DNA of 64,000 nt, taken from the NCBI GenBank assembly GCA_951812825.1, contig OX638324.1, positions 311,317 through 375,316 on the forward strand, given 5' to 3'. The notes beneath the pieces are model-generated. The model saw nothing but the letters and a program-made list of their open reading frames with translations, had not been told where the DNA came from and did no database searches. Shown here one piece after another: positions 22,399 to 56,587 of the stretch (the first letter of the stretch is position 1; each line of letters begins with the position of its first letter). The position numbers and the translations under genes were made by a program. The stretch is from an uncultured Dehalococcoidia bacterium. Lineage in GTDB: Bacteria > Chloroflexota > Dehalococcoidia > Lucifugimonadales > GCA-2712585.

Positions 22399-23403
22399 CT
22401 ACAGATTAAACTGCGGGTCCACCCAGTCCTGCTCCTTGCGGTACACCTGAATGCGCCACCTCTGGTCTTCCACAATGTAGATCGAACCGTCGTCGCCGAT
22501 CTCCACCGCCACCGGCGAGTAGAAGAGCTGCTCCTGCGCCAGGCTCGTCGCCCTCATTCGTGCTTTGCGATAGTCGGGGTTGTCGTCCAGGAACTGCTGC
22601 GCCCACTTGGAGGGCTTGTCGGCGTTGCCGATGAAAGTCGTCAGGTGCTCGCCGTCGCCGTCGAAGACCTCAACCTTGTTGTTCCACCAGTCCGTTATGT
22701 AAACATCGCCGTCGGAGTCCACCGCCACGTCGCTCGGCAGATTCAGTTCGCCGATACCCTTGCCGGGAGTGCCGAAGGTCATCATGTACTGGCCGTCCGA
22801 CGAGAATTTCTGCACGCGGTTGTTATGCCAGTCGGCGACGAATACGTTGTCGTATTTGTCCACCGCCAGCCCCCAGGGACGGATAAGCTGGTCGTCGCCG
22901 GTCCCCTCGGAGCCGAAGCTCCCCAGGTACTGTCCGTCTGGCGTAAATCTCTGCACCCGATGGTTCAGGTTCTCCGTGATTAGAAGCTCGCCCTTGCTGT
23001 TGAAGGCCAGACCCGCCGGTCCGTTCAGCTCACCCGGGCCGGAGCCGGGGACGCCCCACTTCGATAGAAAATTCCCTTCTTTGTCGAAAATAGAAATCCG
23101 GTGGAGCCACTCGTCGGCCAGGTACAGCCGACCCTCGTCGTCCAACGCTATCGAATTCCCCCACACCCACTCCCCGTCGCCTTCGCCCGGGCCGCCATAC
23201 TCCCTGACAAATTCCTCGTCGGTGGTCAGCACGGTAACGCGCTGGCACGGCTCCCCCTCGGAACCACGACTCAGGACGTAGATCAGGTCGTCCTTACCCA
23301 AGGCCAGGTCCAACGGATTGCGAAATCCCAAACCCCCGGGAGTGCCCATGCCTATGGCGTGGATGTAGTTGTAGGTGCGGCCCTTGACCATAACCGTCTG
23401 CAT
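22399..23403 (-). CDS. NHL-repeat 6-bladed beta-propeller (partner of DUF1800 copy 1)
   Basis: Repeated P.GLA.D..G..YV.D..NHR.Q.F...G.(F/Y)...G..G...G units. Start at MQTVMVKGR after AGGAG. Confidence 0.9.
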   Translation of the reverse strand: MQTVMVKGRTYNYIHAIGMGTPGGLGFRNPLDLALGKDDLIYVLSRGSEGEPCQRVTVLTTDEEFVREYGGPGEGDGEWVWGNSIALDDEGRLYLADEWLHRISIFDKEGNFLSKWGVPGSGPGELNGPAGLAFNSKGELLITENLNHRVQRFTPDGQYLGSFGSEGTGDDQLIRPWGLAVDKYDNVFVADWHNNRVQKFSSDGQYMMTFGTPGKGIGELNLPSDVAVDSDGDVYITDWWNNKVEVFDGDGEHLTTFIGNADKPSKWAQQFLDDNPDYRKARMRATSLAQEQLFYSPVAVEIGDDGSIYIVEDQRWRIQVYRKEQDWVDPQFNL

Positions 23404-23459
23404 TCTTTCTTGCCCTCTCCTAATCTGATTCTTGCGAAAGGCGAGTCGACAATCGGCGC

Positions 23460-24863
23460 TTAGCCGAACTGGTACTCCCTGGTCGAAGCGATTATCTGCA
23501 TTGCGCCAACTACCCGGTCTGAGAAGTTGGCCGAATCCCCGTTGCCGTTGCCCGGTTGGTTCTTGTTTACGTGGTCGATCAGTTCCTGCCGGGTCTCGTC
23601 TTCCACCTGCACCGGCCCCATCAGGTCCAGGCAGCCGTCCACAAGCCCTTCGGAATCCAGGGCCCCATGGGTCGACATCCTTTCGATGATGTTCTGGATG
23701 CCCGGAAGTTCCTGCTTCACCATCTGGTCGGCGGCAAAGTTGATGCGACGCAGCAGCGCGCCGCTGTCGATCCACTCTCCGCCTGTGTGCCATCCCTCCA
23801 CGCTGGGCGGATCCAACAGCGCCTGTCCTTGGAAGTTGCACTCCTCCACCAGGGTGGTAATGCCGGGCTTCGGGTACTGGAAGTCGCCTACGAGCCTCAT
23901 GGTGCCGGCAATAAGCTCTGCCGGACTCTTCACCTTGGCGTACCAGACGCTTTCGTCCTTGAAGAAGTCGGAAGTGAAAACCGTCCGAAGGGTCTCCCGC
24001 ATGTCGTAGCCGGAGCTAATAAATGTGTCCCCAATCAGGTTGATGGCCACCGGGTCTCGCGGCGCCACGTCCTGCCAGCTGGGCACCTGCACCTCGTCGG
24101 CCACGAAGAAGTTGTAGAGATGACGGGCGATGAACCGCGCAGTCGCGGGCTGTCGGATCACGATGTCGATAATGTCTTCACCATTGAACCGCCCTCGATG
24201 TCCCAGGAACATCTTCTCCGTGTCGTCGTGGTCGTCCGCACGATACTGAAACTCCCACAGGAAGCGGCCGTAGGGATTCCTCGGCAGTTTGTTTGAAATG
24301 GTCCAGCCGGTGAACGCTCGGGCGCACTCCTTCACGTCCTCCTCCGTGTAGTTCCCCTGGCCCATTGAGAAAAGCTCCAGCAGCTCCCGTCCCCAGTTTT
24401 CGTTCGGCGCGTGTTTGTGGTTCTCGTTGTTGTCCAGCCAGAAGATCATGGCCGGGTCCTTGGAAAGTTCAACCAGAATGTCCCGATAGTTGCCCATTCC
24501 GCATCGTCGGAAGGTCGCAATCTGGGACAGCATCTGGTTGCCGTTATCAACCTTGGAATAGCCGGTTGCGAAGACGTGATGCCAGAAGAGGACCATCTTC
24601 TCGACCAAGGGCCTGGGAGTGTTGATCATCCTGTACATCCAGTTGCCCTGCATGTGCAGGGGATTCCCCGGATTGCGGAACCCGTGAAGGTGGCGATACA
24701 GGATTCCCTCGTTGAAGGGCGGGATGCCGTGGGCCTCGGGGTCGAGAAGCTCCTCGACTGTTGCCTCGTATCCCTTGGCGGCTCTCGCTTCAAGCTCGTC
24801 TCTCGACGCTCCAAAGCCGGCTCGACGCATGAGGTGCGCCATCAGTGCGATGTCTCTTTCCAT
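23460..24863 (-). CDS. DUF1800 family protein (copy 1)
   Basis: AHLMRRAGFG, L.EKM.LFWH..FAT, DPAM..WLDN, NENWGRELLELFSMG, PPSVEGW, C-terminal EYQ. Confidence 0.85.
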   Translation of the reverse strand: MERDIALMAHLMRRAGFGASRDELEARAAKGYEATVEELLDPEAHGIPPFNEGILYRHLHGFRNPGNPLHMQGNWMYRMINTPRPLVEKMVLFWHHVFATGYSKVDNGNQMLSQIATFRRCGMGNYRDILVELSKDPAMIFWLDNNENHKHAPNENWGRELLELFSMGQGNYTEEDVKECARAFTGWTISNKLPRNPYGRFLWEFQYRADDHDDTEKMFLGHRGRFNGEDIIDIVIRQPATARFIARHLYNFFVADEVQVPSWQDVAPRDPVAINLIGDTFISSGYDMRETLRTVFTSDFFKDESVWYAKVKSPAELIAGTMRLVGDFQYPKPGITTLVEECNFQGQALLDPPSVEGWHTGGEWIDSGALLRRINFAADQMVKQELPGIQNIIERMSTHGALDSEGLVDGCLDLMGPVQVEDETRQELIDHVNKNQPGNGNGDSANFSDRVVGAMQIIASTREYQFG

Positions 24864-24880
24864 CTCCCATCTCCTTCTAT

Positions 24881-24906
24881 GTCATTCTTAACGAAGCGAA
24901 GAATCT
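24881..24906 (+). repeat. REP-like element, GTCATTCTGA...GAAGAATCT family
   Basis: gtcattcttaacgaagcgaagaatct. Related copies at about 34154, 38865, 45636, 54282 and 60226. Confidence 0.7.
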
Positions 24907-25064
24907 CATCCCCGCGCAACCTGCGATACTGCCTACATTGTATTCATAATTTCGTCTCATGGCTACCGGTGGGCTGAATGGTGCCTTCCCCTTTGAACAC
25001 GTCCCTACTATGATGGACTGAGCAGAGTTTGCGTCGTCGTAAGCGACGCGAGGAAGGAATAAGT

Positions 25065-25418
25065 ATGACACAGCTTGTACGAGAAAAGTGCGTGGCATGC
25101 CGCAGGGATGCACCCAGGGTTACCGACGCCGAGATTGAGCAGCTACACCCCATAGTTTCCGATTGGGATCTCATCGAAGTGGACGGCATCAACCGTCTTC
25201 AACGCAGTTTCCGCTTCCGAAATTTCCAGCAGGCCATGGACTTCACGACAACCATTGGTGCCATCGCCGAGGAAGAAGGACATCACCCAAAGCTGGTCAC
25301 CGAGTGGGGACGGGTCACCATCGACTGGTGGACCCACAAGATACGCGGCCTCCACCGTAACGACTTCATCATGGCCGCCAAAACCGACCGCACCTTCCAG
25401 GACTCGGCTCTCGACTAG
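25065..25418 (+). CDS. phhB: Pterin-4-alpha-carbinolamine dehydratase
   Basis: C.AC, F.F.NF..A, AEEEGHHP, WWTH.I.GLH.NDFIMAAK.D. Confidence 0.9.
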   Translation: MTQLVREKCVACRRDAPRVTDAEIEQLHPIVSDWDLIEVDGINRLQRSFRFRNFQQAMDFTTTIGAIAEEEGHHPKLVTEWGRVTIDWWTHKIRGLHRNDFIMAAKTDRTFQDSALD

Positions 25419-25514
25419 CGAATAGCTACAGTAAGGTCCGGCGGTCCCTCGCTGAGTTGGGTTGCCCCGGCCTTCTTCCCCACCCATAGCAGGCTTGGAA
25501 GAGGCGTGCGAGGG

Positions 25515-27170
25515 TCATCGCGTCTCCTTTCGCAGCGTAAAGAACATGGAGAAACGTATCTTCTCCGCGGTTATTGACCCGCCCGTCATCCAGGATTGTA
25601 GCTGACCTACGAACGGCTCCACGTCACGTCTATAGTCGGACAGCATATCGGCGTCAAGCGAGTTCTCCACCGCCTCCACTATGGCGGCGATATCTACATA
25701 GAGGAGATAGTGAAGAGGTTGAGGCGCCTGGGAGATTAGCTCAGCGAACGCCGGAACGGAGGACAACGACTCGCGCCGGCCCGTCGACGTTTCCTGAAAC
25801 GCTTCTATGCGGTCCACGTTGCTTCCCACGACGGCCCACCTGTCGGTGACCAGATACCCCGGCACGTAGCCCTCGCTCGTCAGTTCGTCAATGTGGAAAG
25901 TGGCCATCTCGTGGTCTTCCCATTCATCCCTTTGGACTTCTATCTCTTCTCCTGCCAAAAGTTCGGCGAGTTGCTCCAGCCCGTCAATGATTCCCACCGG
26001 GTCCTCTACGCCAACCAGCAGCAGCACCTCGATTACTGCGGAAGGAGTTTGGGGCAGGAACAGCCCAAGATCGCTGGGTAACAGCGCCAAGGCGATTTCG
26101 CCCGTAAGGGAGCCGATGATGTCCCTCTCCAAGTCTATGCCAGTCTCATCCTCGAAACCTGCCAGGAACTCGTCCACAGAGGACTCATCCACGCCCCTGG
26201 CCATGTCTAGAGCTTCTTCTAATAGCCGGTCTACGCCCGCCATGGCATATACTGCGACGGTGTCTGCGGGCAGAACATCCAGCGACATGAGTCGATCGTC
26301 TTCGCTCAGGGCGAAAGTCTCTGATGGGGTTTCGGCAATCATGTCCATACGGAGGCCATCAGCGATGAACGAGGCGGATCCCGCTACGTAGCCCGGCAGG
26401 TCTGTCGTTAACGGCTCCAGCCCAACTGTATCTGTGTACGGATCAGCAACTTCCTCCAGCGAGTCCACAAGCTCTCCCGTCCGCAGGAAAAGGAACATTA
26501 CGCGCTGGCTGGGCAGGGACTCTTGGGCCGCGACGAACTCCGGATTGTCTGCCAGCGACTTCTCAGGCGGGGAATTGATGTTTTCGAGCATCTCCATTAT
26601 CGATCCTTCCCTGTCCGCAACGAAAAGATACTCCTCGCTGAGGCCAAGGCCCAGTTCCTCTTCCTCAGTCAACCACAAGTCCATGCCTGCACGCTGTTCA
26701 TGGACAAATTCCGCGTCCATTTCGTCCTCAAATAGATTCGCCAGTCTTTCAGCGAAATTCTCGGCCGACACCCTATCGGAAACCTGCGCCATCAGCGCCC
26801 ACTTCACACTATCCGTGTCCGCGTGGAAAAGGACGAAGGTAACATCAGTCCCAAGCCAGGAAGTCACGTCATCCAGGAAGTGAAGGCCCGTTTCATCCTC
26901 TAATTCATCAAGCAGATCGTCCCGACGCTCCAGAAATTCCTCCGTCTGAAACCGATCCATTACGTCCTGCGCCAGACTCAACTGGTTCATTCCGGGACGA
27001 GTGTTAATCGTGACGTACCCTATGGCGCTCTCAGGCACAAATCGGGCTGTCGCTTCGCCTGGACGTCCTGTCCCCCGTAGCCAAAGCACACCCAAGACTA
27101 CGACAATAGCGACTACTACGAGCATTACGCCGCTTCCACCCCACAGCAGTATCTTCCTCCGCCCTGTCAC
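25515..27170 (-). CDS. Membrane-anchored acidic protein, DUF3352-like
   Basis: N-terminal TM helix, A..VP......Y..I, WLG.....V, L...P.F......LP, G.D...D....L.GE pattern. Confidence 0.6.
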   Translation of the reverse strand: MTGRRKILLWGGSGVMLVVVAIVVVLGVLWLRGTGRPGEATARFVPESAIGYVTINTRPGMNQLSLAQDVMDRFQTEEFLERRDDLLDELEDETGLHFLDDVTSWLGTDVTFVLFHADTDSVKWALMAQVSDRVSAENFAERLANLFEDEMDAEFVHEQRAGMDLWLTEEEELGLGLSEEYLFVADREGSIMEMLENINSPPEKSLADNPEFVAAQESLPSQRVMFLFLRTGELVDSLEEVADPYTDTVGLEPLTTDLPGYVAGSASFIADGLRMDMIAETPSETFALSEDDRLMSLDVLPADTVAVYAMAGVDRLLEEALDMARGVDESSVDEFLAGFEDETGIDLERDIIGSLTGEIALALLPSDLGLFLPQTPSAVIEVLLLVGVEDPVGIIDGLEQLAELLAGEEIEVQRDEWEDHEMATFHIDELTSEGYVPGYLVTDRWAVVGSNVDRIEAFQETSTGRRESLSSVPAFAELISQAPQPLHYLLYVDIAAIVEAVENSLDADMLSDYRRDVEPFVGQLQSWMTGGSITAEKIRFSMFFTLRKETR

Positions 27171-27405
27171 GATAGACTCACCTTACGCCTTGGAATCGCC
27201 CTCACGTCCGCCGGTGGAACCTGTTGAGCAGACCTGGGTCGCCTCAGTATACAATGTGCAAAGTGTTAGCGGGCAGGATGGAGAGACCGAAACCTTCAAT
27301 GTTCTCAGGTACTTGCAAAGATTCTCTTCTGATTCGCAGACGACTGCTATTCCGAATAGGACCCGCCATTAGCACCGTGCCGAAACCCAATGCCGGAGTG
27401 GCAGC

Positions 27406-27963
27406 TTGAACCTCCGCCGCGACGAAACCTTCTCCGTAAGAGTCATCCGCGTTAACGACGGCGACGGTTGCATTGCGACGCGCCTCGGCTGGTTTCGCCG
27501 CAACCGTGAGACCATCGAAATCCGGCTCCACGCAATCGACGCGCCGGAGTACGACCAGCCCTTTGGCCGTGAGGCAACCCATCGTCTGAAGCGTATCGCC
27601 GAGGGTAAACGGTTCAACTGCAAGGTTTGGGACCCAACAGACCAGTTTGGACGCGTCGTCGGCGTCCTCTACCAGCGCAGGCTTGGGCAGTCCGTCAACC
27701 GGCAAATGGTGGAATCCGGCATGGCCTACCGGTTCACCCGATTCGGTGAGATGAGCGGACTCGGCCTGACCAACGCCGAAAGAGACGCTCGCCGCCAGAA
27801 GCTGGGTGTCTGGAGCCTTCCCGACGGCGGCGTCAGACCCTGGCATCACCGGCGGCGGCAGCGCGCCCAAGCCCGGGGGCGTCGGAGCATCGAATACCAG
27901 GTTCTCAGGCTTGCCTTCAAGTCCTTGGCGTGGCTGCTGAGAAAGCTCCTCCGCCTCCGTTAG
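27406..27963 (+). CDS. Thermonuclease (SNase-like) family protein
   Basis: V.DGD, IRL..IDAPE..QPFG.EA, D.FGR..G, VN..MV..G.A, AR..K.G.W. Confidence 0.85.
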   Translation: MNLRRDETFSVRVIRVNDGDGCIATRLGWFRRNRETIEIRLHAIDAPEYDQPFGREATHRLKRIAEGKRFNCKVWDPTDQFGRVVGVLYQRRLGQSVNRQMVESGMAYRFTRFGEMSGLGLTNAERDARRQKLGVWSLPDGGVRPWHHRRRQRAQARGRRSIEYQVLRLAFKSLAWLLRKLLRLR

Positions 27964-28053
27964 GCGCGGCGCTCCAAATAGGGAACTTCTCGTAGGGAAT
28001 GGTTTCAAACCAACTCCTCCCACATCCGTATCTACCTTCGTCAGGCAAGACAG

Positions 28054-29076
28054 TTGACCACTCCCAACCCTGCGACTAGCATTACCCCCATGCTGTTCCT
28101 CAACAGAACAGAGGTCGAGCGGCTGCTGGATCTCGACGCCCTCATTGATGCTCTGGCGTCAACCATGGCCGAAGTCAGCGCCGGCGAGATATCCCAGCCG
28201 CCGCGCATCGGCGCACAGATCGCCGAGCGCGATGGAAACCTGCTCGTCATGCCCGCCTACCTGCCCGGCTCAGGGTCGCTGGCCGTCAAGCTGGTGAGTG
28301 TTTTCCCCCTAAATCACGCGCTGGGCGTACCCAGCCACCAGGCCCTCATTGCGGTCTTCGACGCCGAAACGGGCGCTCCCGCCGCAGTCATGGACGGCGA
28401 ACACATCACCGCCATGCGCACCGCCGCCGGCGCCGCCCTCGCCACCCGCCTGTTGGCCCGCCCCGATGCGAAAGTCTTGGCCATACTCGGCACAGGCGTC
28501 CAGGCCAGGGCCCACGCCATCGCCATCCCCCGCGTCAGGCCCATCTCCGAAATTCGCGTCGCAGGAAGGGACCCCAATAAGGCCAAAGTCGTTGCCAAGG
28601 AGGTTTCGGACGAACTTGGCGTGCCAACCCAAGGAACAGGCTCATTCGAAGATGCGGTGACAGACGCCGACGTTATCTGCGCCTGTACCCACGCCGATAC
28701 GCCGGTTCTACTCGGCGAGTGGCTCCCCCCCGGCACCCACGTCAATTCCGTAGGGTTGAACTTCCAGGGCCGGGAGCTAGACGAGGAAGTTGTTCGTCGT
28801 TCAAAGCTGTTTGTGGAATCTCGACAAGCCGCCCTTGCTCCCGCCCCCGCCGGCGCCAACGACCTGACCTGGCCCATACGCGACGGCATAATTAAAGAAT
28901 CCCACATCCTTGCGGAAATAGGCGAGCTCGTGACGGGCGCTCACCCCGGCCGTAACTCTGACGACCAGGTCACTCTCTACAAGTCCGTGGGCGTAGCGGC
29001 CCAGGACGCCGTCGCCGCCGGGCTGGTCCTCTCCGCCGCGATCGAAAAAGGCGTGGGCTTGAACATAGCAATGTAG
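28054..29076 (+). CDS. Ornithine cyclodeaminase / mu-crystallin family protein
   Basis: MPA, K.V..FP.N, IT.MRTAA, ILG.GVQA..H, LYKSVG.A.QD. Confidence 0.9.
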   Translation: MTTPNPATSITPMLFLNRTEVERLLDLDALIDALASTMAEVSAGEISQPPRIGAQIAERDGNLLVMPAYLPGSGSLAVKLVSVFPLNHALGVPSHQALIAVFDAETGAPAAVMDGEHITAMRTAAGAALATRLLARPDAKVLAILGTGVQARAHAIAIPRVRPISEIRVAGRDPNKAKVVAKEVSDELGVPTQGTGSFEDAVTDADVICACTHADTPVLLGEWLPPGTHVNSVGLNFQGRELDEEVVRRSKLFVESRQAALAPAPAGANDLTWPIRDGIIKESHILAEIGELVTGAHPGRNSDDQVTLYKSVGVAAQDAVAAGLVLSAAIEKGVGLNIAM

Positions 29077-29100
29077 GGGCAGGTTTGACCCTGCCCCTAC
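29073..29100. repeat. GTAG-tagged palindrome (REP-like)
   Basis: GTAGGGGCAGG-tttgac-CCTGCCCCTAC. Related single-arm copies at about 16916, 27992, 45737, 48975, 54309, 55498, 55541 and 63308. Confidence 0.75.
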
Positions 29101-29139
29101 AGCAATTAATCTAGCGTAATTCAGACCATCTTAATTCTG

Positions 29140-30264: not shown

Positions 30265-30373
30265 TCCTGCCTCCTTAATTCAAACTTGGCGGACGTTACG
30301 TCACGTTTAACCCGCAGAATACTCCCTGAGTAAAAAATTGTCCAGATGGCGAACATGGGTCAATACCAAGAAA

Positions 30374-32572: not shown

Positions 32573-32639
32573 GTTGCGAAGTAACGTCGCCTACGGCCAA
32601 TCAATAAAGAAGCGGGATTCCTCCTATGGAAAGAAACCC

Positions 32640-35967: not shown

Positions 35968-35970
35968 GCT

Positions 35971-39670: not shown

Positions 39671-40711
39671 TTAATGTGCACTATCTGGCCACGCAAACAC
39701 CTGCACCCGCGCCCGCGCTGTGTCCACCACAAACACCCGACCTTCCGCGTCAATCTTCACCGTCGTCGGACCCCAGAACAGCTTCTCCACCATCGCCGAC
39801 TCCTGCCGCAGCTCGTCTCCCGGCGGGTACACTAGCTCCGGCTCCAGGTTGGCCCTCTCCCGTTCCTCCAACTCGTCCATGTTCGTCGTGAAATACTCGT
39901 GGGCCCACTTGGAAAGCCCCGACTCTCCCCGCAGGTTTGCCAGGCACTCGCCGTCCTGGGTCAGCGCCTGCACCCGCTCGTTCCCCCAATCCGCCACGTA
40001 CAGAACTCCTTCGTCGTCCACTGCCAGCCCCGCCGGACGGTTGAACTTCCCGTCGTCGGCGTCCGAGCCTCCCCACACCCTCACAAACTTCCCGTCAGCC
40101 GTGAACTTCTGAATCCTGTCATTGCGCCAGTCCACCACGTACACGTTTCCGGCTGCATCGGCAGCCACGCCCCACGGCATGTTGAACTCTCCCTCGCCGT
40201 CGCCCGCACTCCCCCACTGCGAAATGAACTCTCCCGTGGGCGTATATTGCTGGATGCGATGGTTCAGGCTGTCCGCAATCAGCAGGTTGCCATCGCCGTC
40301 GACAATCATCCCGGCCGGACGGTCGAACTCCCCCTCGCCGTTCCCCTGCCGGCCCCACCGGTAGAGGAAGTTCCCTTCCTTATCGAAGACGGAAACCCGA
40401 TGCAACGCCTCGTCGCCGATGTACACCCGGTCTTCCCCGTCAATCGCGATGGAGGAAGGCCACATTATCTGTCCGTCGTTTTGACCGCCCGAGCTGAACT
40501 CTCCTAAGAATTGCTCGCCGACGGTGCACTTAGTCACCCTCTTGGAAGGATTCATCTCCTCGGCGTCGGAACCCCCGCGGCTGACCACGTACATGACCCC
40601 GTCGCTGTCGAAAGCCAGGTCCACCGGATTGCCGAAGCCTCGCCCTCCCTGGAGCGACATGAACCCCACCGTATGGCTGTACCGCAATTTAGCTGCTGTT
40701 TTCGTAATCAT
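39671..40711 (-). CDS. NHL-repeat beta-propeller (partner of DUF1800 copy 2)
   Basis: NHL repeats (F..P.G.A.D..G..YV.DW.N.R.Q.F). Start MITKTAAK is 7 nt after the DUF1800 stop. Confidence 0.9.
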   Translation of the reverse strand: MITKTAAKLRYSHTVGFMSLQGGRGFGNPVDLAFDSDGVMYVVSRGGSDAEEMNPSKRVTKCTVGEQFLGEFSSGGQNDGQIMWPSSIAIDGEDRVYIGDEALHRVSVFDKEGNFLYRWGRQGNGEGEFDRPAGMIVDGDGNLLIADSLNHRIQQYTPTGEFISQWGSAGDGEGEFNMPWGVAADAAGNVYVVDWRNDRIQKFTADGKFVRVWGGSDADDGKFNRPAGLAVDDEGVLYVADWGNERVQALTQDGECLANLRGESGLSKWAHEYFTTNMDELEERERANLEPELVYPPGDELRQESAMVEKLFWGPTTVKIDAEGRVFVVDTARARVQVFAWPDSAH

Positions 40712-40718: not shown

Positions 40719-42155
40719 TCACGCCAACTGATATTCTGTGGTGGCCGAAATAACCTGCAGAAGCTGGGCGATGCTCTCCGATGAGGCCCGCGCATCCTCC
40801 GCCGTGTCGAAGCTCAACTCTCCGGCGGCCCTCGCGTGCGCCACCAGGTCGGCGTGGGTGTCCTCCGACACCCTCATGTGGCCCAGCAGCCCCAGGCACT
40901 CTTCTACGAGCGACTCCGCCGATGCGTAAGCCCCCTGCTCCTGCACCCGCCGGATGATCGACTGCACGCCCGGACGCGCAGGATCGGCAAACTCTTCAGC
41001 GGCAAAGTTCACCCTGCTGACCAGGCTCCCCGTTGTCACCCACTCCACCCCCGTGTGCCAGCCCTCCACGCTGGGGGGGTCCAGCAACTGCTGGCCCATG
41101 TTCCCCGTCTCTGCTGCCAACCGCAGGTCCTGGGGGCTGGGGAAGGAATAGCCGCCGGTAAGACGTGCAGTGCCCACTACAAATTCCGTAGGACTCTTTA
41201 TCTTGGCGAACGCCGCCTCTTTGAAAAAGTCCGAATTCAGCAGAGTCCGCATCACCTCACGCATGTTGTAACCGCTTTCGTCAAACACCCTCGCCAGCGT
41301 CTCCACCGCCTCCGGGTCCCTGGGCGGAGTATCTTTCCACGCCGGAACCTGGGGCTCGTCGGCCACAAAGAAGTTGTACAGGTGACGCCCAACGAACCTC
41401 CCCGTCGCCGGGTGTCGACAGATTATGTCAATCACGTCCTCCCCGTTGAAGGGCCCCCGCTGCCCGAGGAAGTCCTTGTCGTTCTCGTCGTGGTCCCCAG
41501 GTAGATATTCGAAGTGCCAGTCCAGCCGGCCGTAGGGCCAGATGGAGTCCCGGTCCGTCCGGGACTGATGCAACGATGCGTCGGCGATGGTCCAGCCGGT
41601 AAAGGCGTGGGAAGCCTGACGCACGTCGTCTTCCGTGTAATTGCCCTGCCCCATCGAAAAAAGCTCCAGCAGCTCCCTGCCGAAGTTCTCGTTGACGGCG
41701 TCCTTATGGTTGTCCTTGTTGTCAAGCCAGAAGATCATCGCCGGGTCCTTGGAAAGCTCTAGCAGAATCCGATGGAAGCTGCCCATCCCGAGCCTGCGAA
41801 ACATCTCCACCTGGTTCAAAATCGCCCTGGGATGATTGAGCTTGGTATAGCCCGTGGCGAAGATGCAGTGATAGAACAGCGCCATCTTCTCCTCCAGCGG
41901 ACGGCGGGTGTTGATCATCCGGTACAGCCAGTAGGTCTGACAGCTCTCCAACATGAGCAGATTGTTCCCGTCCACGTGGTAGCGCTTCAGCAGGTCCTCG
42001 TCGTCCAGGGCTGGCGGCTGGAGCTCCGGGTGCAGCAATTCTTCCACCGTTGCCTCGTACCCCTTCGCTGCACACCGTTCGACCTCCTCGCGGGTGGCGC
42101 CGAAACCGGCCCTCCGCATCAGATGGGCCATGAGAGCTAGATCTTTTTCAGACAT
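40719..42155 (-). CDS. DUF1800 family protein (copy 2)
   Basis: AHLMRRAGFG, NENFGRELLELFSMG, PPSVEGW, EYQLA. Confidence 0.85.
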   Translation of the reverse strand: MSEKDLALMAHLMRRAGFGATREEVERCAAKGYEATVEELLHPELQPPALDDEDLLKRYHVDGNNLLMLESCQTYWLYRMINTRRPLEEKMALFYHCIFATGYTKLNHPRAILNQVEMFRRLGMGSFHRILLELSKDPAMIFWLDNKDNHKDAVNENFGRELLELFSMGQGNYTEDDVRQASHAFTGWTIADASLHQSRTDRDSIWPYGRLDWHFEYLPGDHDENDKDFLGQRGPFNGEDVIDIICRHPATGRFVGRHLYNFFVADEPQVPAWKDTPPRDPEAVETLARVFDESGYNMREVMRTLLNSDFFKEAAFAKIKSPTEFVVGTARLTGGYSFPSPQDLRLAAETGNMGQQLLDPPSVEGWHTGVEWVTTGSLVSRVNFAAEEFADPARPGVQSIIRRVQEQGAYASAESLVEECLGLLGHMRVSEDTHADLVAHARAAGELSFDTAEDARASSESIAQLLQVISATTEYQLA

Positions 42156-42203: not shown

Positions 42204-42232
42204 AATCTATCACCACACCATTTTAGCGTCAA
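42204..42232 (-). promoter_or_regulatory. sigma70 promoter for the DUF1800-NHL operon 2
   Basis: TTGACG-17 nt-TAGATT with TGn extension. Confidence 0.5.
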
Positions 42233-45762: not shown

Positions 45763-45785
45763 TGCTGGCCGAGGAATTAGAATCT

Positions 45786-46763: not shown

Positions 46764-46960
46764 TTGAATCGGTGAGAAATGCTGAACGGCTTAGGCATTT
46801 TAGTGAAGATGCCGAAGAGGTTGCCCGTGATTCATCATCGAAAGGCAGTCGGACTAGAGAGCTTCTTGGCGTTGACTCATTTTTCCATCCCCATTAAACT
46901 GCCTTTGGCAGACGGATGCCCCCCGTCGCGCCCGAATTAACCCGACAAGGAGACAAAGGT

Positions 46961-47884: not shown

Positions 47885-47977
47885 CCCCCTACCTAAATCC
47901 CTTCCCCCCGGATGGGGGTGTTCCACGTGCCACCAAACCAAAATCCGACAACCCAACCATAACTGGAGGACGAAAAA

Positions 47978-48943: not shown

Positions 48944-49038
48944 GCACTGTTCGCCAGACTCCATTCCCAGTATCCGTACGGGCGTCCCTTGTGGGGGCGC
49001 TCTCTCCCAACGCCAATCTCACAATAAAGGGAAAAGAA

Positions 49039-50367: not shown

Positions 50368-50462
50368 GACAGTGCCACAACCTCGGTTCCATGCTGAAGT
50401 GCCCACATAGAGATTCGACATCCTGGCTTGCGAAGGTTCTGGCATCAGGGCGACGCAAAGCC

Positions 50463-50532
50463 GTCATTCCGGCAGAAGCCGGAATCCATCTTGTCCCTTC
50501 CCCCTCGATGGGGGAAGGTTGGGATGGGGGTG
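50463..50532 (+). repeat. REP-like doublet (GTCATTCCGGC...GCCGGAATCC plus CCCTTCCCCC...GGGGGAAGG)
   Basis: Two adjacent hairpin-forming units in the intergenic region. Confidence 0.75.
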
Positions 50533-50594
50533 AAAGAGGTAAAGTGTCTTCCGAAATTGCTAAGAATGCCTGATGAACTAACAAGGAACCAGCT

Positions 50595-50849
50595 ATGATT
50601 AGCTACCCCGCCCTCCTTGACGGAAAAAGGGGCTCCTATGGCGTTGTTTTCCCCGACATCCCCGGAGTCGGCGCAATGGGACACACAATCGCCAAGGCAA
50701 TCGCTAATGCAGAGAGCGTCCTGCGAGACTACGTCATCGAAACGAAATGGAATGGAACCGAACTAGCGACGCCAACTCAGCTTTGCTCTATCCAAATTCT
50801 CGAAGGAAATCACTTGGTTAAAATTACCCTAATCCCCCCAAGAGGCTGA
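50595..50849 (+). CDS. HicB-like protein (orphan, possibly degenerate)
   Basis: YPA.......SYGV.FPD.PG..A.G.T...A...A...L. Confidence 0.7.
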   Translation: MISYPALLDGKRGSYGVVFPDIPGVGAMGHTIAKAIANAESVLRDYVIETKWNGTELATPTQLCSIQILEGNHLVKITLIPPRG

Positions 50850-50851
50850 CC

Positions 50852-51775
50852 ATGCTTGAACCCAACCTCTCTCCCTACGCCCCTATCATCGACCGCCCCG
50901 TCCTCCGCTGGCCCAACAACGCCCGTATCGCCGTTTGGGTAGCCCCCAACATCGAGTTCAAGGACTACGTCCCTTCACCTAACGACGGCAAGGGCGGTTT
51001 CTACCGCACCTCCTACGACCGGACCCCAATCCCCGACGTCATGACCTACGGCAACCACGACTACGGCAACCGCGTCTGCGTCTGGCGAATGCTGGAGGTC
51101 TTCGACAGCCTCAACATCAAGTGCACCGTCTCCCTCAACGAAGGCGTCCTCGACCTCTTCCCCGAAATCCGCGACGCCTTGGTCAAGCGCGACTACGACT
51201 ACATGTCCCACGGCATCTTCAACAACCGCTACCTTAACCACCTCTCCATCGACGAGGAGCGCGCCTTCTTCAAGGACTGCGTCGATTCCCTCTACCGCCA
51301 CACCGGCAAGAAGCTCAAGGGTATGCTGACCCCCGGCGTCTCTCCCACCGCCAACACGCCAGACCTCATGGCCGAGGCTGGGCTCATCTACAACGCCGAT
51401 TGGGGCCACGACGACCAGCCCTTCCCCATGAACGCCAAATCCGGCCGTCTCATCTCCATGCCCTACAACCTCGACCTGAACGACGGCACCTTCAACCGCT
51501 TCGGCTGCCCAGCGGATTACTGGGCCCAGTGCCTCAAGGACCAGTTCGACGTGATGTACGCCGAGGGCGAGCACAACGCCACCCAGATCTGCGTCTCCCT
51601 GCACCCCGCCCTTGCCGGCCACCCCAGCCGCATCGACCACCTGAACGACGCCCTCTCATACATGCTTTCCCACGAAGGCGTCTGGCAGGCCACCGCCGAC
51701 GAAATGGCCCAGCACTACCTCGACAACTACTACGACGAAATGGTCGCCCACCTAAACCAACGAGACTACCGATAA
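50852..51775 (+). CDS. Polysaccharide deacetylase / PuuE-like hydrolase, close paralog of 46961-47884
   Basis: Colinear, with long identical stretches (e.g. DLMAEAGLIYNADWGHDDQPFPM). Confidence 0.88.
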   Translation: MLEPNLSPYAPIIDRPVLRWPNNARIAVWVAPNIEFKDYVPSPNDGKGGFYRTSYDRTPIPDVMTYGNHDYGNRVCVWRMLEVFDSLNIKCTVSLNEGVLDLFPEIRDALVKRDYDYMSHGIFNNRYLNHLSIDEERAFFKDCVDSLYRHTGKKLKGMLTPGVSPTANTPDLMAEAGLIYNADWGHDDQPFPMNAKSGRLISMPYNLDLNDGTFNRFGCPADYWAQCLKDQFDVMYAEGEHNATQICVSLHPALAGHPSRIDHLNDALSYMLSHEGVWQATADEMAQHYLDNYYDEMVAHLNQRDYR

Positions 51776-51834
51776 GATGCGCGGCCCTACCAGCCGTCAT
51801 TCCAGCGAAAGCCGGAATTCAGCCGTTCCTCAAA

Positions 51835-52431
51835 TTATAGCCCGAGCAGTTGCCTCTTCTTCGTGTCGAACTCTTCCTGTGTAAGGATGCCGCGTTCTAA
51901 AAGACTTGCGAACTTTTCGATTTCTTCAGCCGCTGAAAGCACTGACTCGGCCTTTCGATTCGTCTGCTGAGCCATCTCAGCATGTAGATCTTCCACATAA
52001 TGCCTGACACTATCGGCGAATAGCTTTGCTGAATCCTTGGGCATGATGTCTTCAATTCGCCAGCCAGCTCGTCCTAGTCCAGTTATTTGTACACCCCCAG
52101 AAAGCATCCCGGTACTATGCGTTATTCCTTCAATGCTTCTGTAAGGCATCTCTGATACTTCTTTGCTGCCTAGTATCCCCTTGTCCAGAAAGATTACTCT
52201 CTTACTAGTCGCCACTGCCACGCCACTGTGTTTGTGAAGACGATTTGTATCCTGCTCAGCCCTGTAAGTGCCGCCAACCAAAGCAGTTATATCCTCGCCT
52301 TGATCAAGGATGTCATAGAGCATCTTTCGCTCACCACCGTGCATTCGCTTGTCACCGCGAAATGTTCCCCATCCTTTTGGCATAACCGAGTACCACTGTT
52401 CATCAATGCGCTTTTCTTCAACTGAAGTCAT
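51835..52431 (-). CDS. Bacterial PH-domain protein with C-terminal SHOCT domain
   Basis: G..VAT.KR..FLDKG.......E.PY..I..I. C-terminus EI.K...L.ERG.LT.EEF..KK..LLG. Confidence 0.8.
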   Translation of the reverse strand: MTSVEEKRIDEQWYSVMPKGWGTFRGDKRMHGGERKMLYDILDQGEDITALVGGTYRAEQDTNRLHKHSGVAVATSKRVIFLDKGILGSKEVSEMPYRSIEGITHSTGMLSGGVQITGLGRAGWRIEDIMPKDSAKLFADSVRHYVEDLHAEMAQQTNRKAESVLSAAEEIEKFASLLERGILTQEEFDTKKRQLLGL

Positions 52432-52856
52432 CTCGCCTCCAATTCACTTAACCGATTGCATCGTAATCCGGACTCTCAAAGTTTTCTGTGCCTTCTATCA
52501 GCTTCCCTGATTCACAATGATATCAATTGGGGAAAATCTTGCAAGTGTTCAATGTTTGACGATTCTCTAGAGAAATGAGTAATGTGCCCCTCACAGTTTC
52601 TTGGCAAAATGCTTGAATCTACATGAGAAGCAACGTCACCGATTCACACACTCCCACAGTGCTAATCCCTACGAGTGATTGGCCGTTCATTTCACGGAAA
52701 TGAGATACAGGAATAGTCTCAACCGTTCCTACAATGCCAAGTCCTAGAGCGCATTAGTGTAGTTCCACAGCCCACCCTCCCAAACACCCCCATTCTTGAC
52801 TACCCCCCAAAACCACGGATATCATTACCAAAACTCTCAATCAAAAGGACGAAAAC

Positions 52857-54272
52857 ATGGCTAACAAGGACATCGCTCTCATGGCCCACCTCATGCGACG
52901 GGCCGGCTTCGGCGCCGACAGGGACGAACTCGAACGCCGCGTCGCCAAGGGCTACGAGGCCACCGTCGAAGAACTTCTCGACCCCGAAGCCCACGGCATC
53001 CCCGAACTCGACACCGACGAACTCTTCCGCATGACTCCCGGCTTCAAAGTGCCCGCCAACCCGGAGAATATGTCCGGCTACTGGATGTACCGCTTCATTA
53101 ACACACCGCGCCCCTTGGAGGAAAAGATTGCCCTCCTCTGGCACCACATCTTTGCCACCGGCAACGCCAAGGTCGCCAGCCCCCTGGAGATGACCCTCCA
53201 GATTGACCTCTTCCGCGACATCGGCATGGGCGACTATCGCACCATGCTGCTGGAGCTGTCCAGGAATCCCGCCATGATCTTCTGGCTCGACAACAACGAG
53301 AACCACAAGGACGCCCCCAACGAGAACTGGGGCCGCGAGCTCCTGGAGCTCTTCTCAATGGGTCAGGGCCACTATACCGAGGAGGACGTCAAGGAGTGCG
53401 CCCGCGCCTTCACCGGCTGGACCATCGGCCCCACCCTCCCTGGCGTCCTCTACAACCGCTTTCCCTGGGAGTTCAAGTACGACCCCGACGACCATGATGA
53501 CACCGAAAAAACCTTCCTCGGCGAGACGGGCCGATTCAACGGCGAGGACATCATCGACATTATCCTCAAGCATCCCGCCACTCCCCGGTTCGTCGCCCGC
53601 CACCTCTACAACTTCTTCGTTGCCGACGAAGTTCAGGTGCCCAGCTGGCTCGACGAGCCGCCCCGCGACCCGGAGGCCATCGACACCCTCGCCGAAACTC
53701 TGGTCTCCTCTGGCTACAACATCCGCGAGACTCTCCGCGTCCTGTTCAACTCCGACTTCTTCAAGGACGAAAGCGTCTGGTTCGAAAAGGTTAAGAGTCC
53801 CACCGAGCTCGTTGTCAGCACCATGCGGCTTACCCAGGACTTCAAGGACTATCGCCCCGGCTTCTTTGAAATCGCCATGGAACCCTCCATCCAGGGCCAG
53901 GCCATCCTCAATCCGCCCAGCGTGGAGGGCTGGCACACCGGCCACGAGTGGATCGACAGCGGCGCCCTCCTCCAGCGCATCAACTTCGCCGCCGATAGAA
54001 TCGGCGACCCCAACCTCCCCGGCGTACAGAACATCGTCGAAAGACTTTCCCGCCAGGGCACCCTATCCCCCACGGAACTCGTCGACGGCTGCCTGGACCT
54101 CCTCGGCCCCATAACCGTCGCCGAAGGCACCCGCAGCCAGCTTGTTGCCCATGCCGAAACGGAGGGTGACCTCCACCGCGGCGAAACCGAGGAGGAGCAC
54201 GTGGCATTCGCCAACCGCGTAGCCACCATGCTCAAACTCATCACCTCCTGCCGCGAATTCCAGATGGCCTGA
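52857..54272 (+). CDS. DUF1800 family protein (copy 3)
   Basis: AHLMRRAGFG, NENWGRELLELFSMG, PPSVEGW, EFQMA. Confidence 0.85.
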   Translation: MANKDIALMAHLMRRAGFGADRDELERRVAKGYEATVEELLDPEAHGIPELDTDELFRMTPGFKVPANPENMSGYWMYRFINTPRPLEEKIALLWHHIFATGNAKVASPLEMTLQIDLFRDIGMGDYRTMLLELSRNPAMIFWLDNNENHKDAPNENWGRELLELFSMGQGHYTEEDVKECARAFTGWTIGPTLPGVLYNRFPWEFKYDPDDHDDTEKTFLGETGRFNGEDIIDIILKHPATPRFVARHLYNFFVADEVQVPSWLDEPPRDPEAIDTLAETLVSSGYNIRETLRVLFNSDFFKDESVWFEKVKSPTELVVSTMRLTQDFKDYRPGFFEIAMEPSIQGQAILNPPSVEGWHTGHEWIDSGALLQRINFAADRIGDPNLPGVQNIVERLSRQGTLSPTELVDGCLDLLGPITVAEGTRSQLVAHAETEGDLHRGETEEEHVAFANRVATMLKLITSCREFQMA

Positions 54273-54281
54273 CCTTTACAT

Positions 54282-54332
54282 GTCATTCTGAACGCAGCAG
54301 AAGGCCTGGTAGGGGCGGGTTTCAAACCCGCC
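54282..54332 (+). repeat. REP-like doublet between DUF1800 and NHL genes
   Basis: gtcattctgaacgcagcagaagg followed by gtaggggcgggtttcaaacccgcc. Confidence 0.7.
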
Positions 54333-54410
54333 TGCTCCTCCTAGGAAATACCCGCCATTCCCGCCTCCCCTCTTAAGCCTCTCATCCCGAAAACAAACAG
54401 GAGAAAAATC

Positions 54411-55409
54411 TTGGAAGCAACAACCGCCCGCGGCCGTAAGTTCAGCTACAGCCACACCCTCGGAAACCTCACCATCTTCCGCTATCCCGTCGACGTGGGC
54501 CTAGACGCAGACAACAACGTCTACGTGGTCAATCGCGGCCACGACGGCGACTGGGTCTTCGGCGTCAACAAGATTACCATCGACGAAGACGAAATCGGTC
54601 GTTTCGGCGGTGAGGGCGATACCGACGGCCGCTTCCGCTGGCCCACTTCCATCGTCATCGACAGCCAGCGACTCGCCTACGTGGCCGACGAATGGCACAA
54701 CCGCATCTCCATCTTCGACACTACCGTGGACTTCAACGGCGGCGATGTCGAAGAAGGTAATTTCCTGCGAAAGTGGGGCGTCCCCGGCCCCGAACCCGGA
54801 CAGCTTGGCGCTCCCGCCGGCATGGTCCTCGACGACAACGAAGACCTCTACATCACCGAACAGGGCAACAACCGCGTCTCCAAGTTCACCCGCGAGGGCG
54901 AATTCCTCATGACCTTCGGCGGCCCCGGCGCCGGCCCAGGCCAGTTCAATAGGCCCTGGGGTATAGCCATCGACGGCGAAGGCAACCTCTATGTCGCCGA
55001 CTGGAACAACCACCGCATCCAGAAGTTCACCTCCGCAGGCGAATTCCTGCAGGTTATCGGCGAACCTGGCCAAGGTCCCGGCCAACTCCGTCGACCCAGC
55101 GACGTCGCCGTAGACGCAGATGGTGACATCTATGTCACCGACTGGGGTCAGAGTAAGGTCGAGGTCTACGACGCCGACGGTGCACACCTCACCACCCTCT
55201 ACGGCGACCACAACAAGCTCTCCCCCCGCAGCCAGAAGTACCTGGAGTTGAACACCGTCGACAGCGAAAAGCGCGCCCTGGTCACCGACTTTGACCCCGA
55301 GCGCTACTTCAACACCCCAACCGCCGTCGAGGTAGACCGGGATGGCCGCATCATCATCGTCGACAACATCCGCCTCCGCCTCCAGGTCTACCGCAAAGAG
55401 ATGGCCTAG
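54411..55409 (+). CDS. NHL-repeat beta-propeller (partner of DUF1800 copy 3)
   Basis: NHL repeats. TTG start after AGGAGA. Confidence 0.9.
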   Translation: MEATTARGRKFSYSHTLGNLTIFRYPVDVGLDADNNVYVVNRGHDGDWVFGVNKITIDEDEIGRFGGEGDTDGRFRWPTSIVIDSQRLAYVADEWHNRISIFDTTVDFNGGDVEEGNFLRKWGVPGPEPGQLGAPAGMVLDDNEDLYITEQGNNRVSKFTREGEFLMTFGGPGAGPGQFNRPWGIAIDGEGNLYVADWNNHRIQKFTSAGEFLQVIGEPGQGPGQLRRPSDVAVDADGDIYVTDWGQSKVEVYDADGAHLTTLYGDHNKLSPRSQKYLELNTVDSEKRALVTDFDPERYFNTPTAVEVDRDGRIIIVDNIRLRLQVYRKEMA

Positions 55410-55588
55410 CCCATACACACTCCCATCATTCCCACGCAAAGTCTGCCCTCGCGAAGGCGGGGGCCGGAATCCATCCGCTCTATCCGACAACCCACCCGTA
55501 GGGACGTGCCTTGTGGGGGCCCGTCCCGCTACCCGCATCCGTAGCAGCGGGTCCAAACCCGCCCGCCAACCCAAATAGGAGAACCACC

Positions 55589-56587
55589 CTGGAAGCAATA
55601 GCCGTTCGCGGCAGAGAATTCACCTACAGCCACACCATCGGCAACGCCGCTGTCTTCAATTACCCCGTCCATCTCTGCCTGGACTCCGACAACATCCTCT
55701 ACGTCGTTAACCGTGGCCACGACGGTGAGTGGATCTTCGGCATCAACAAGATCGCCGTCGACGAGACGGAAATCGGCAAGTTCGGCGGCTACGGCGAGTC
55801 CGAGGGACGCTTCATCTGGCCCACTGCCATTGCCGTCGACAGTCACGGCCTCGCCTACGTGGCCGACGAATGGCTCAACCGCATCTCCATTTTCGACACC
55901 ACCGTTGAATTCAACGGCGCAGACATCGAAGAGAAAAACTTCCTCCGCAAGTGGGGCGTTGGCGGCTCAGAACCAGGACAACTTGGCGCTCCCGCCAGCC
56001 TCGTTCTCGACTCCAACGAAGACCTCTACATCACGGAACAGGGCAACAACCGCGTCTCCAAATTCACCCGCAACGGCGACTTCCTCCTGACCTTCGGCGG
56101 CCCCGGCTCCAGCCCAGGCCGGTTCGACAAACCCTGGGGCATAACCGTCGACAGGTACGACAACGTCTACGTAGCCGATTGGGGCAACAACCGTGTCCAG
56201 AAGTTCACCCCGGAAGGCGAGTTCCTACAGACCATCGGCGAATCTGGCAGAGGCCCCGGCAAACTCCACCGCCCCAGCGACGTTGCCGTCGACTCCGACG
56301 GCGACGTCTACATCTGCGACTGGGGTCAGGACAAAGTCGAGGTCTATGACGCCGACGGTTCGCATCTAACCACCCTTTACGGCGATTCCAAAGAACTTTC
56401 CCCCCGCGGCGTCAAGTACCTTGAACTGAACATCGCCGACCTCGAAAAACGCCGCATGGTGACCAACTTCGAACCTGAATATCGCTTCACTCTGCCCACC
56501 GGCGTCGAGGTCGACCCCCAAGGCCGAATCTACGTCGTCGACAACATCCGCTTCCGCGTCCAGGTCTACCGCAAGGAGAAGACCTAA
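55589..56587 (+). CDS. NHL-repeat beta-propeller, tandem paralog; probable CTG start
   Basis: Colinear with the upstream paralog and the same length (999 nt) if started at CTG 55589, 6 nt after AGGAGA. Confidence 0.85.
   Translation: MEAIAVRGREFTYSHTIGNAAVFNYPVHLCLDSDNILYVVNRGHDGEWIFGINKIAVDETEIGKFGGYGESEGRFIWPTAIAVDSHGLAYVADEWLNRISIFDTTVEFNGADIEEKNFLRKWGVGGSEPGQLGAPASLVLDSNEDLYITEQGNNRVSKFTRNGDFLLTFGGPGSSPGRFDKPWGITVDRYDNVYVADWGNNRVQKFTPEGEFLQTIGESGRGPGKLHRPSDVAVDSDGDVYICDWGQDKVEVYDADGSHLTTLYGDSKELSPRGVKYLELNIADLEKRRMVTNFEPEYRFTLPTGVEVDPQGRIYVVDNIRFRVQVYRKEKT

Follow-up and report, generated by a model that had tools for sequence, protein, structure and literature searches.

A leaderless gene module of DUF1800 and NHL propeller proteins, multiplied in a Dehalococcoidia genome and often lacking DUF1501

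In a 64,000-nucleotide stretch of DNA from an uncultured Dehalococcoidia bacterium (GenBank assembly GCA_951812825.1, contig OX638324.1, positions 311317-375316; hereafter the window), which is part of a single 2.47-Mb contig, we examined three loci where a gene encoding a DUF1800 domain protein is followed by one or two genes encoding NHL-repeat beta-propellers. An earlier interpretation of the window, made without database searches (hereafter the sequence-only reading), had proposed that these genes form a separate cytoplasmic two-protein system without DUF1501, the usual neighbor of DUF1800. We find that the three loci belong to a module that is present eleven times in this genome and conserved in related bacteria, and we document its gene order, its conservation as seen from either partner, the lack of leaders on its proteins, the co-diversification of the two partners, and the repeated loss of DUF1501. 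The claims made at the level of genes are near certain, while those concerning a protein complex and its chemistry are much less so.

The DUF1800-NHL module in the window

All three DUF1800 genes of the window match the Pfam profile PF08811 with 330-340 bits over profile positions 1-418/419 (gathering score 26.1 bits), and the four NHL genes match PF01436 with 112-129 bits (E-values 1e-33 to 1e-38; gathering score 20 bits), each with three to four separately significant repeats. Module 1, on the reverse strand, encodes a leaderless DUF1800 protein of 467 amino acids (23460-24863; E-value 5.1e-100, profile positions 1-418 of 419) and a six-blade NHL propeller of 334 amino acids (22399-23403; E-value 4.3e-33), whose open reading frame (ORF) extends up to 23841 and whose start at 23403 was set by alignment with its paralogues. 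Module 2, also on the reverse strand, comprises a deep-branching, leaderless DUF1800 paralogue of 478 amino acids (40719-42155; E-value 3.5e-101) and a propeller of 346 amino acids (39671-40711; E-value 8.4e-36; ORF open to 40795). Module 3 lies on the forward strand and consists of a leaderless DUF1800 protein of 471 amino acids (52857-54272; E-value 3.6e-98) and two propellers. The first of these has 332 amino acids (54411-55409; E-value 1.7e-38), and the second (55589-56587; E-value 4.1e-34) lies in an ORF beginning at 55511, its alignment-placed start near 55589 being uncertain. The two propellers form a clade with support of 100/100, and therefore represent a tandem duplicate.

With the NHL starts trimmed in this way, the intergenic gaps are 56 nucleotides at the first locus, 7 at the second, and 138 and 179 at the third. 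The motifs AHLMRRAGFG, NENxGRELLELFSMG and PPSVEGW are present in the three DUF1800 proteins of the window as well as in all 11 genomic paralogues. No DUF1501 gene was found within the window (genome 311317-375316), nor after any of its three DUF1800 genes. The sequence-only reading had described three DUF1800 loci, each with a co-directional NHL gene, a 7-nucleotide gap at the second locus, two NHL genes at the third, and the three motifs kept throughout; the Pfam comparison and the trimmed coordinates bear out this description.

Distribution of the module within the genome

The genome encodes 11 DUF1800 proteins, and downstream of each of these genes, on the same strand, lies an NHL gene at a distance of 7-138 nucleotides. 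In three of the 11 modules (at 1119 kb, 1220 kb and 1475 kb of the genome) a leaderless DUF1501 gene is inserted between the two, and in the other eight it is absent; we refer to the two arrangements as D-S-N (DUF1800-DUF1501-NHL) and D-N (DUF1800-NHL). These three are the only DUF1501 genes of the genome (1118-1119 kb, 1221-1222 kb and 1477-1478 kb), and all lie outside the window.

A profile of the partner propellers detects 22 NHL-type genes with at least 62 bits in this genome. They fall into 13 genes scoring 400-549 bits, 12 of which adjoin a DUF1800 gene, and nine genes scoring 62-240 bits. The one high-scoring gene that stands alone (genome 2464271-2465587) has an N-terminal extension of about 100 residues and is located beside a DUF4349/PKD protein gene on the opposite strand. 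An NHL propeller of another subfamily is encoded within the window itself (60413-61297, reverse strand; 189 bits on the partner profile), with no DUF1800 gene nearby.

Of 81 evenly sampled genomes of the class, 23 have DUF1800; the eleven copies of this genome are the highest number, the others having one to five. In five close relatives the numbers of DUF1800 and DUF1501 genes are 9 and 3, 11 and 3, 9 and 3, 11 and 3, and 8 and 6, respectively. Among the six genomes checked, there is none that combines D-N modules with a complete lack of DUF1501 genes.

Conservation of the module in related bacteria

We scanned one genome per species with an alignment of DUF1800 and with an alignment of the propeller, keeping in each case the 80 best loci out of more than 600 that matched. 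Among the best 80 loci of the DUF1800 scan, 66 come from Dehalococcoidia, SAR202 or Chloroflexota records and 14 from Alphaproteobacteria, including Acetobacteraceae, Rhodopila, Hyphomicrobiaceae and Stellaceae. These loci carry 83 DUF1800 genes, six of which are cut by a contig end. Each of the other 77 has a partner-type NHL gene downstream, in 25 cases as D-N and in 52 as D-S-N. The 13 complete alphaproteobacterial loci all have the three-gene arrangement, and in one the DUF1501 gene is split. In the reverse direction, 78 of the 79 loci found with the NHL profile have a DUF1800 gene upstream on the same strand (67 D-S-N and 11 D-N), and the remaining one is cut by a contig end. Together, the two scans cover 116 distinct isolates from two phyla. 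Chance cannot account for an NHL gene accompanying DUF1800 in 11 of 11 modules here and in 77 of the 77 related loci that have room for it.

As a contrast set we used 20 loci, with 21 DUF1800 genes, from the sample of 81 genomes of the class. In this set 19 DUF1800 genes sit in ordinary DUF1800-DUF1501 pairs and lack an NHL gene within 5 kb; the other two are part of D-S-N modules. An RR-x-F/L motif followed by a hydrophobic stretch is present in 14 of the 16 DUF1501 proteins inspected from the contrast set, in which 47-59 residues precede the first strand, and the two proteins without such a leader are exactly the two linked to an NHL gene. This indicates that loss of the twin-arginine (Tat) leader and gain of the propeller coincide. 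In six ordinary pairs from other Dehalococcoidia (L089, L091, L095, L096, L098 and L101; L numbers denote individual loci) a DUF1501 protein with an RR leader is encoded beside a leaderless DUF1800 protein. Such ordinary DUF1800 proteins may be carried across the membrane bound to the DUF1501 protein with its Tat leader, which would imply a pre-formed complex.

Changes in DUF1501 presence and co-diversification of the partners

In a tree of 87 DUF1800 proteins the presence of DUF1501 changes at least nine times, and at least six of these changes are forced by well-supported branches. One clade of 30 members is mostly D-N (26 of 30) and holds eight of the 11 paralogues from this genome, namely seven D-N copies and the D-S-N copy at 1475 kb. 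Members with the D-S-N arrangement are nested inside this clade, and D-N members are also found in other clades. Since ordinary pairs and most of the branch carry DUF1501, the simplest reading is that the two-gene form is derived and that DUF1501 was lost repeatedly, at least six times; the tree is unrooted, so a gain could formally account for any single change. The propeller is kept at all loci that could be checked despite these losses of DUF1501, which argues that the propeller is the indispensable partner.

The 13 alphaproteobacterial triads form one clade (L035-L079), with 55-61% identity to the window protein, that is nested among Dehalococcoidia sequences. This nesting suggests that the whole three-gene module was transferred between phyla.

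The trees of the two partners mirror each other. Supported groups common to both trees of the paralogues within the genome, which we name by genome position, are 352k with 1220k, 148k with 960k, and 23k with 217k, 335k and 948k, and 1119k is deep in both. The DUF1800 protein of module 2 is sister to the 1220k paralogue (support 84), and its propeller is likewise sister to the N1220k partner (support 83). Patristic distances of DUF1800 and NHL proteins are correlated among the 11 paralogues (Mantel r 0.81, with none of 2000 permutations as high) and across all 87 DUF1800-NHL pairs (r 0.90, none of 500 permutations as high). Approximately unbiased (AU) tests do not reject congruence of the two trees (p 0.36 and 0.086); the trees seem to disagree on where the propeller of the 1475k module belongs, but not significantly so (p 0.36). 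Because the correlation is present within one genome it does not reflect species history, and the pairs have been duplicated and retained as units. Co-diversification by itself is no demonstration of binding.

Orthologous pairs exist in other genomes for seven of the paralogues, with 91-98% identity for DUF1800 and 83-97% for NHL. The DUF1800 protein of module 1, for example, is 91% identical to its nearest orthologue (L009), and their NHL partners are 88% identical; that of module 3 is 98% identical to its orthologue in L023, where two NHL genes likewise follow. Paralogues inside the genome are only 47-78% (DUF1800) and 35-66% (NHL) identical. Orthologues being far closer than paralogues, the expansion is old and each copy is under selection.

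These results revise the sequence-only reading in part. Its diverged paralogous pairs are supported by the mirrored trees, and the pairing that it proposed to look for in other genomes is conserved there in both directions. Its description of the module as lacking DUF1501 holds for the window and fails beyond it, where D-S-N is the arrangement of three of the 11 modules in this genome and of 52 of 77 and 67 of 78 related ones. The D-N form is therefore a reduced branch of a DUF1800-DUF1501-NHL module and not, as had been suggested, a separate two-protein system. It had also been considered that the NHL genes might simply follow DUF1800-DUF1501 operons elsewhere with no specific link. Such operons do precede NHL genes; these are only the leaderless ones, and their link to the propeller is specific and co-diverging.

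Leader peptides and predicted location

All 11 DUF1800 proteins of the genome start at position 1 of the Pfam profile (M..KDIALMAHLMRRAGFG), the NHL partners start at a conserved M..GR.YNYSH, and the three DUF1501 proteins have 5-12 residues ahead of their first conserved strand (..DPVLVV.QL.GGND), with no RR (twin-arginine) motif. The maximal hydrophobicity over 12 residues within the first 45 is 0.4-0.8 in the DUF1800 proteins, compared to 1.56-2.09 in the 14 control DUF1501 proteins with Tat leaders. At related loci only 15-35 codons often separate the upstream stop from the first conserved strand of DUF1501, which leaves no room for a Tat leader, in Alphaproteobacteria too; in the alphaproteobacterial loci all three proteins are leaderless as well. 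The lack of signal peptides noted earlier for both partners is thus supported by profile-start alignment and low hydrophobicity, and, given the missing leaders, the module is most likely cytoplasmic, as had been proposed.

Domain and structural analysis of the module proteins

We conducted an analysis of sequence conservation and predicted structure for each of the three protein families. The model of DUF1800 (467 amino acids) is all-helical with four short strands and was predicted with high confidence (predicted local distance difference test, pLDDT, 94; predicted template modelling score 0.93). A wide scan of this model with VIA-align gave a best Z of 6.3, which is below the meaningful level for helical proteins and concerns only EF-hand-like helices in the last 85 residues, the first 380 residues having been barely tested separately. 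A feature search of the ESM Atlas with PF08811 excluded returned no usable match, and NCBIfam contains no family that covers DUF1800. Two of the window proteins show a match to PSD1 in Pfam that is below the cut-off (E-value 0.002-0.003). The family itself is very large, with 13,452 clusters at 50% identity (E-value up to 0.001). Mean column identity among the paralogues is 71% for DUF1800 and 53% for the propeller. Across 68 diverse DUF1800 sequences a set of polar residues is invariant or nearly so, as expected for a binding or active site: H10, R13, R14, E88, H95, D144, N154-E155-N156, E160, E163, D176, D211-H212-D213, W358 and E363.

The DUF1501 protein has no match in the PDB by sequence. 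Its model (pLDDT 80, and below 50 at residues 83-101 around the putative nucleophile) matches sulfatases, PafA and LtaS with E-values of 3e-5 to 7e-4, at a template modelling (TM) score of only about 0.4 and about 10% identity. Residues D17, S83, H84, D245, H247, D301 and H302 are invariant in 47 sequences. These residues would fit a metal-dependent hydrolase with a putative serine nucleophile.

The propeller is, by sequence, a canonical six-blade NHL domain of about 335 amino acids that stands alone. In profile comparisons with solved NHL domains it matches TRIM71, Thin, TRIM2 and Brat with E-values of 8e-97 to 1e-43 and the PAL domain with 2e-20; Vgb lyase, SGL lactonase and PAL are among the weaker matches. 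Matches of the NHL genes to ScyF/ScyE in NCBIfam reach only 159-217 bits where 350 are required, which excludes these genes from ScyF. A helical insert precedes the last blade. Most of the propellers end in ..(D/N)(W/Y).(D/E)PQFNL (for example at 22399-22425 of the window), and in all 13 alphaproteobacterial propellers this tail reads ..DFQANL; the ..DPQFNL tail is missing from the partners of modules 2, 3 and 1119k. The C-terminal tail may be a docking peptide.

Genomic context and signals of transcription

The surroundings of the modules in the window are catabolic in character, in agreement with what had been described before. The window encodes amidases, amidohydrolases (Amidohydro_1 and Amidohydro_2), Ldh_2, ornithine cyclodeaminase, acyl-CoA dehydrogenase and short-chain dehydrogenases/reductases (SDR), as well as polysaccharide deacetylases and family-5 solute-binding proteins. 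Among 142 neighbors at related loci and 96 ORFs at the loci of this genome we found no neighbor conserved across clades; GMC oxidoreductase, isochorismatase, Ldh_2 and peptidase S9 recur only within orthologous loci. As the neighbors vary by locus, the module is self-contained. An SDR gene is located between DUF1800 and DUF1501 in L143 (2449-3204, forward strand) and another directly after module 3 of the window, and L155 and L179 show about 0.8 kb of extra spacing between DUF1800 and DUF1501, as in L143.

A gene of the Fur family (PF01475, E-values 1e-20 to 1e-25) directly adjoins the module on the same strand at nine loci of two phyla, five in Alphaproteobacteria (L035, L046, L064, L071 and L073) and four in Dehalococcoidia (L138, L143, L144 and L179). 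In L071 and L073 such genes lie on both sides of the module, and the alphaproteobacterial Fur proteins carry a DHHHFFC stretch. In L046 a rubrerythrin gene is found downstream of the module. No Fur gene is near any of the 11 modules of this genome, whose two Fur genes are at 1454 kb and 2431 kb. None of the defence families in PADLOC matches the DUF1800, DUF1501 or NHL protein.

Promoter-like sites, which are consensus matches only, precede the three modules of the window. They are located at 24937-24965 (reverse strand, 9 of 12 consensus positions) for module 1, at 42204-42232 (reverse strand, 9 of 12 with a TG extension) for module 2 and at 52796-52825 (forward strand, 10 of 12, 32 nucleotides before the DUF1800 start) for module 3. 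A terminator-like hairpin, again a consensus match only, follows the NHL stop of module 2 (39666-39647, reverse strand). Between the partner genes of the window modules there is no promoter-like site on the coding strand, and in module 1 no terminator-like site lies there either. In a sequencing run filed as RNA, a contig of 239 nucleotides corresponds to 23695-23933 of module 1 with one mismatch, and in a second such run a contig of 229 nucleotides corresponds to 22801-23029 with two mismatches; either could derive from DNA and neither shows strand or level. These contigs give at most a weak hint that module 1 is transcribed, and regions that they leave uncovered carry no information.

Two further genes of the window were noted for their domain content. 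A 310-amino-acid ORF (303-1235, reverse strand) is an unusual fusion of RNase H (residues 4-125) and MoaC (residues 166-301); a MoaA-like radical-SAM gene in the same orientation lies immediately upstream of it. A 1344-amino-acid ORF (16943-20977, reverse strand), two genes downstream of module 1, has as its sole Pfam match an MqsA-antitoxin-like domain at residues 4-68.

Proposed function and alternatives

We propose that each of the three loci carries one copy of a self-contained, leaderless operon whose core is DUF1800 and a dedicated NHL propeller. This operon would have originated from an ordinary DUF1800-DUF1501 pair with a Tat-exported DUF1501 protein. In one branch the Tat leader would have been lost and an NHL gene gained, which produced the D-S-N arrangement. 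The lineage of this genome would then have raised the copy number of the module to 9-11, with most copies losing DUF1501; the propeller gene is retained at every locus with enough downstream DNA to check.

It seems probable on balance that DUF1800 and the propeller form a cytoplasmic complex in which the highly conserved DUF1800 (71%) carries the common chemistry or binding, and the variable propeller (53%) sets the specificity of each paralogue. DUF1501, where present, would add an optional step of ester hydrolysis; in the two-gene copies this step could be unneeded, or the three remaining DUF1501 genes could provide it in trans. Such a complex would most likely process organic compounds inside the cell after their import, in a bacterium with many families of catabolic paralogues.

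Several observations weigh against this proposal. DUF1800 has no relative in the PDB either by sequence (best E-value 0.18) or by comparison of the model with Foldseek (best E-value 1.2); the predicted structure is confident and still has no solved relative, and no active site can be named from it. The propeller is nearest by sequence to non-enzymatic NHL domains (TRIM71, Thin and TRIM2; E-values 1e-97 to 1e-72), its match to PAL being far weaker, and in sets of 12 or 74 partners no histidine is found among the invariant or near-invariant columns, nor is there an obvious metal site. Since flanking genes differ between loci, a catabolic role rests on the general context, and the Fur-family neighbors point to metal or redox control over carbon catabolism. 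One partner-type NHL gene, the lone gene at L109:8272-9588 (forward strand, 457 bits), stands apart from any DUF1800 gene. With the best 80 of more than 600 matches taken from each scan, more distant members fall outside the sample. Finally, leaders were called only by inspection, alignment and a crude hydrophobicity index with positive controls.

The evidence for a complex also has to be weighed against a simpler arrangement, in which the two proteins, as distinct enzymes or as one enzyme and one binding protein, act at successive steps of a pathway and are co-transcribed with no complex being formed. A shared pathway explains operon structure and co-duplication equally well, and NHL-type propellers include stand-alone enzymes, to some of which (Vgb lyase, SGL lactonase and PAL) the partner gives weaker matches. 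We nevertheless think this arrangement unlikely, in view of an association that is all but obligate from either side (77 of 77 loci in one scan, 78 of 79 in the other) despite repeated loss of the gene in the middle. The propeller also lacks invariant residues of a catalytic type, and the ..DPQFNL tail conserved on most propellers could be a docking peptide.

The Fur-family neighbors, together with the rubrerythrin gene of L046, suggest a different function altogether, that of a metal or redox-stress module for binding, trafficking or detoxification under a Fur-family regulator, with copies tuned to different ions or conditions and no catabolic role. Consistent with this, DUF1501 belongs to a metalloenzyme superfamily, and two DUF1800 proteins are among 15 listed in the proteome of mineralising vesicles of Entotheonella (PMC12981691). 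However, Fur genes are not found near any module of this genome, and 11 paralogues exceed the usual need of metal homeostasis. The Fur-linked Alphaproteobacteria are, furthermore, one clade of five, and three of the Dehalococcoidia cases share the unusual DUF1800-DUF1501 spacing; because the cases are clustered in this way they represent few independent events. A metal or redox function is therefore rather improbable in our view.

Location is the next point at which the proposed cytoplasmic complex could fail, as the proteins could be exported through a signal that escaped recognition or as passengers of another Tat substrate. The ordinary pairs with leaderless DUF1800 beside Tat-leader DUF1501 are relevant here, and because of them the leaderlessness of DUF1800 alone is no proof of a cytoplasmic location. 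Even so, export of the module proteins seems very improbable: no module member in the branch has a leader, its DUF1501 proteins begin just before the first strand and often have no upstream room, and DUF1501 is missing altogether from eight of this genome's 11 modules. The idea that adjacency is meaningless, NHL genes being merely frequent in a genome with 22 of them, can be dismissed, since 12 of the 13 members of a single subfamily (400-549 bits) adjoin DUF1800 and the link recurs, with mirrored trees, in 116 isolates of two phyla.

Significance and comparison with known systems

Relatives of the window lineage are labelled Dehalococcoidia or SAR202, the latter being a globally abundant ocean group, and the genome described here is the most expanded and most reduced case of the module that we examined (11 copies, eight of them without DUF1501). 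The two-protein leaderless form offers an easily expressed system for first biochemical work on the DUF1800 family, and the module could be approached genetically in its Fur-linked and alphaproteobacterial forms. We tentatively raise a more far-reaching idea, itself doubtful, that DUF1800 and the propeller are the core of an undescribed cytoplasmic enzyme class with a fold that has no solved relative, which SAR202-type bacteria multiplied against varied imported organic compounds that are hard to degrade, with DUF1501 as an optional accessory hydrolase. If true, it would open the very large DUF1800 family to functional understanding for the first time.

Both DUF1800 and DUF1501 form large families of wide distribution, and few papers mention them. 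A full-text literature search on them returned no function for either in the portions of the papers available, and a full-text search pairing SAR202 with the NHL repeat returned no paper. The available portions of PMC6653060 and PMC5615132 contain nothing relevant to the module.

We compared each component of the module, and then the module as a whole, with better-known systems. The propellers share the six-blade fold of the NHL domains of TRIM71, Thin, TRIM2 and Brat, as judged from strong profile matches. PAL binds zinc through histidine, and these conserved ligands of a catalytic NHL propeller are not found in the module propellers. Compared to the TRIM and PAL domains, the module propellers stand alone and have the helical insert and, in most copies, the conserved C-terminal tail. 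DUF1501 resembles the alkaline-phosphatase/sulfatase superfamily through a weak fold match (TM about 0.4) and through invariant Asp, Ser-His and Asp-His sets that would fit a metal site; it differs in that its nucleophile region is poorly modelled and identity is about 10%.

In Planctomycetes and Verrucomicrobia, DUF1501 is associated with PSCyt/PSD1 proteins (Kamneva et al. 2012, PMC3542564), and the function of this association is described as unknown. The two systems are alike in having DUF1501 and a large partner and in being multiplied many times per genome, and two of the DUF1800 proteins described here have the sub-threshold match to PSD1. According to the same paper, the PSCyt/PSD1 partners have cytochrome-c-type motifs and signal peptides and their DUF1501 often carries a twin-arginine motif, whereas the module has no haem motif, leader or PSCyt domain.

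In SAR202 genomes, COG3391, COG4102 and COG5267 belong to the 50 clusters of orthologous groups (COGs) with the highest abundance and are mutually correlated (Saw et al. 2020, mBio, PMC6946804); the paper's COG section calls them uncharacterised conserved proteins. They correspond to the same three families, beta-propeller, DUF1501 and DUF1800, respectively. The co-abundance of the three families is thus already published. That COG section reports a correlation of abundance only and is silent on operon structure, missing leaders, DUF1501 loss and co-diversification, and the organisation of the module beyond co-abundance is absent from it.

The closest known system is the canonical DUF1800-DUF1501 operon, which has been described beside bacterial chitin synthase genes and with a Tat motif on DUF1501 (PMC5122149). 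The first gene, DUF1800, is homologous in both, and the gene order is the same where DUF1501 is present. The module described here differs from this operon in that its proteins have no leaders, an NHL propeller is always added, and DUF1501 is absent at all three loci of the window and at eight of the 11 loci of the genome.

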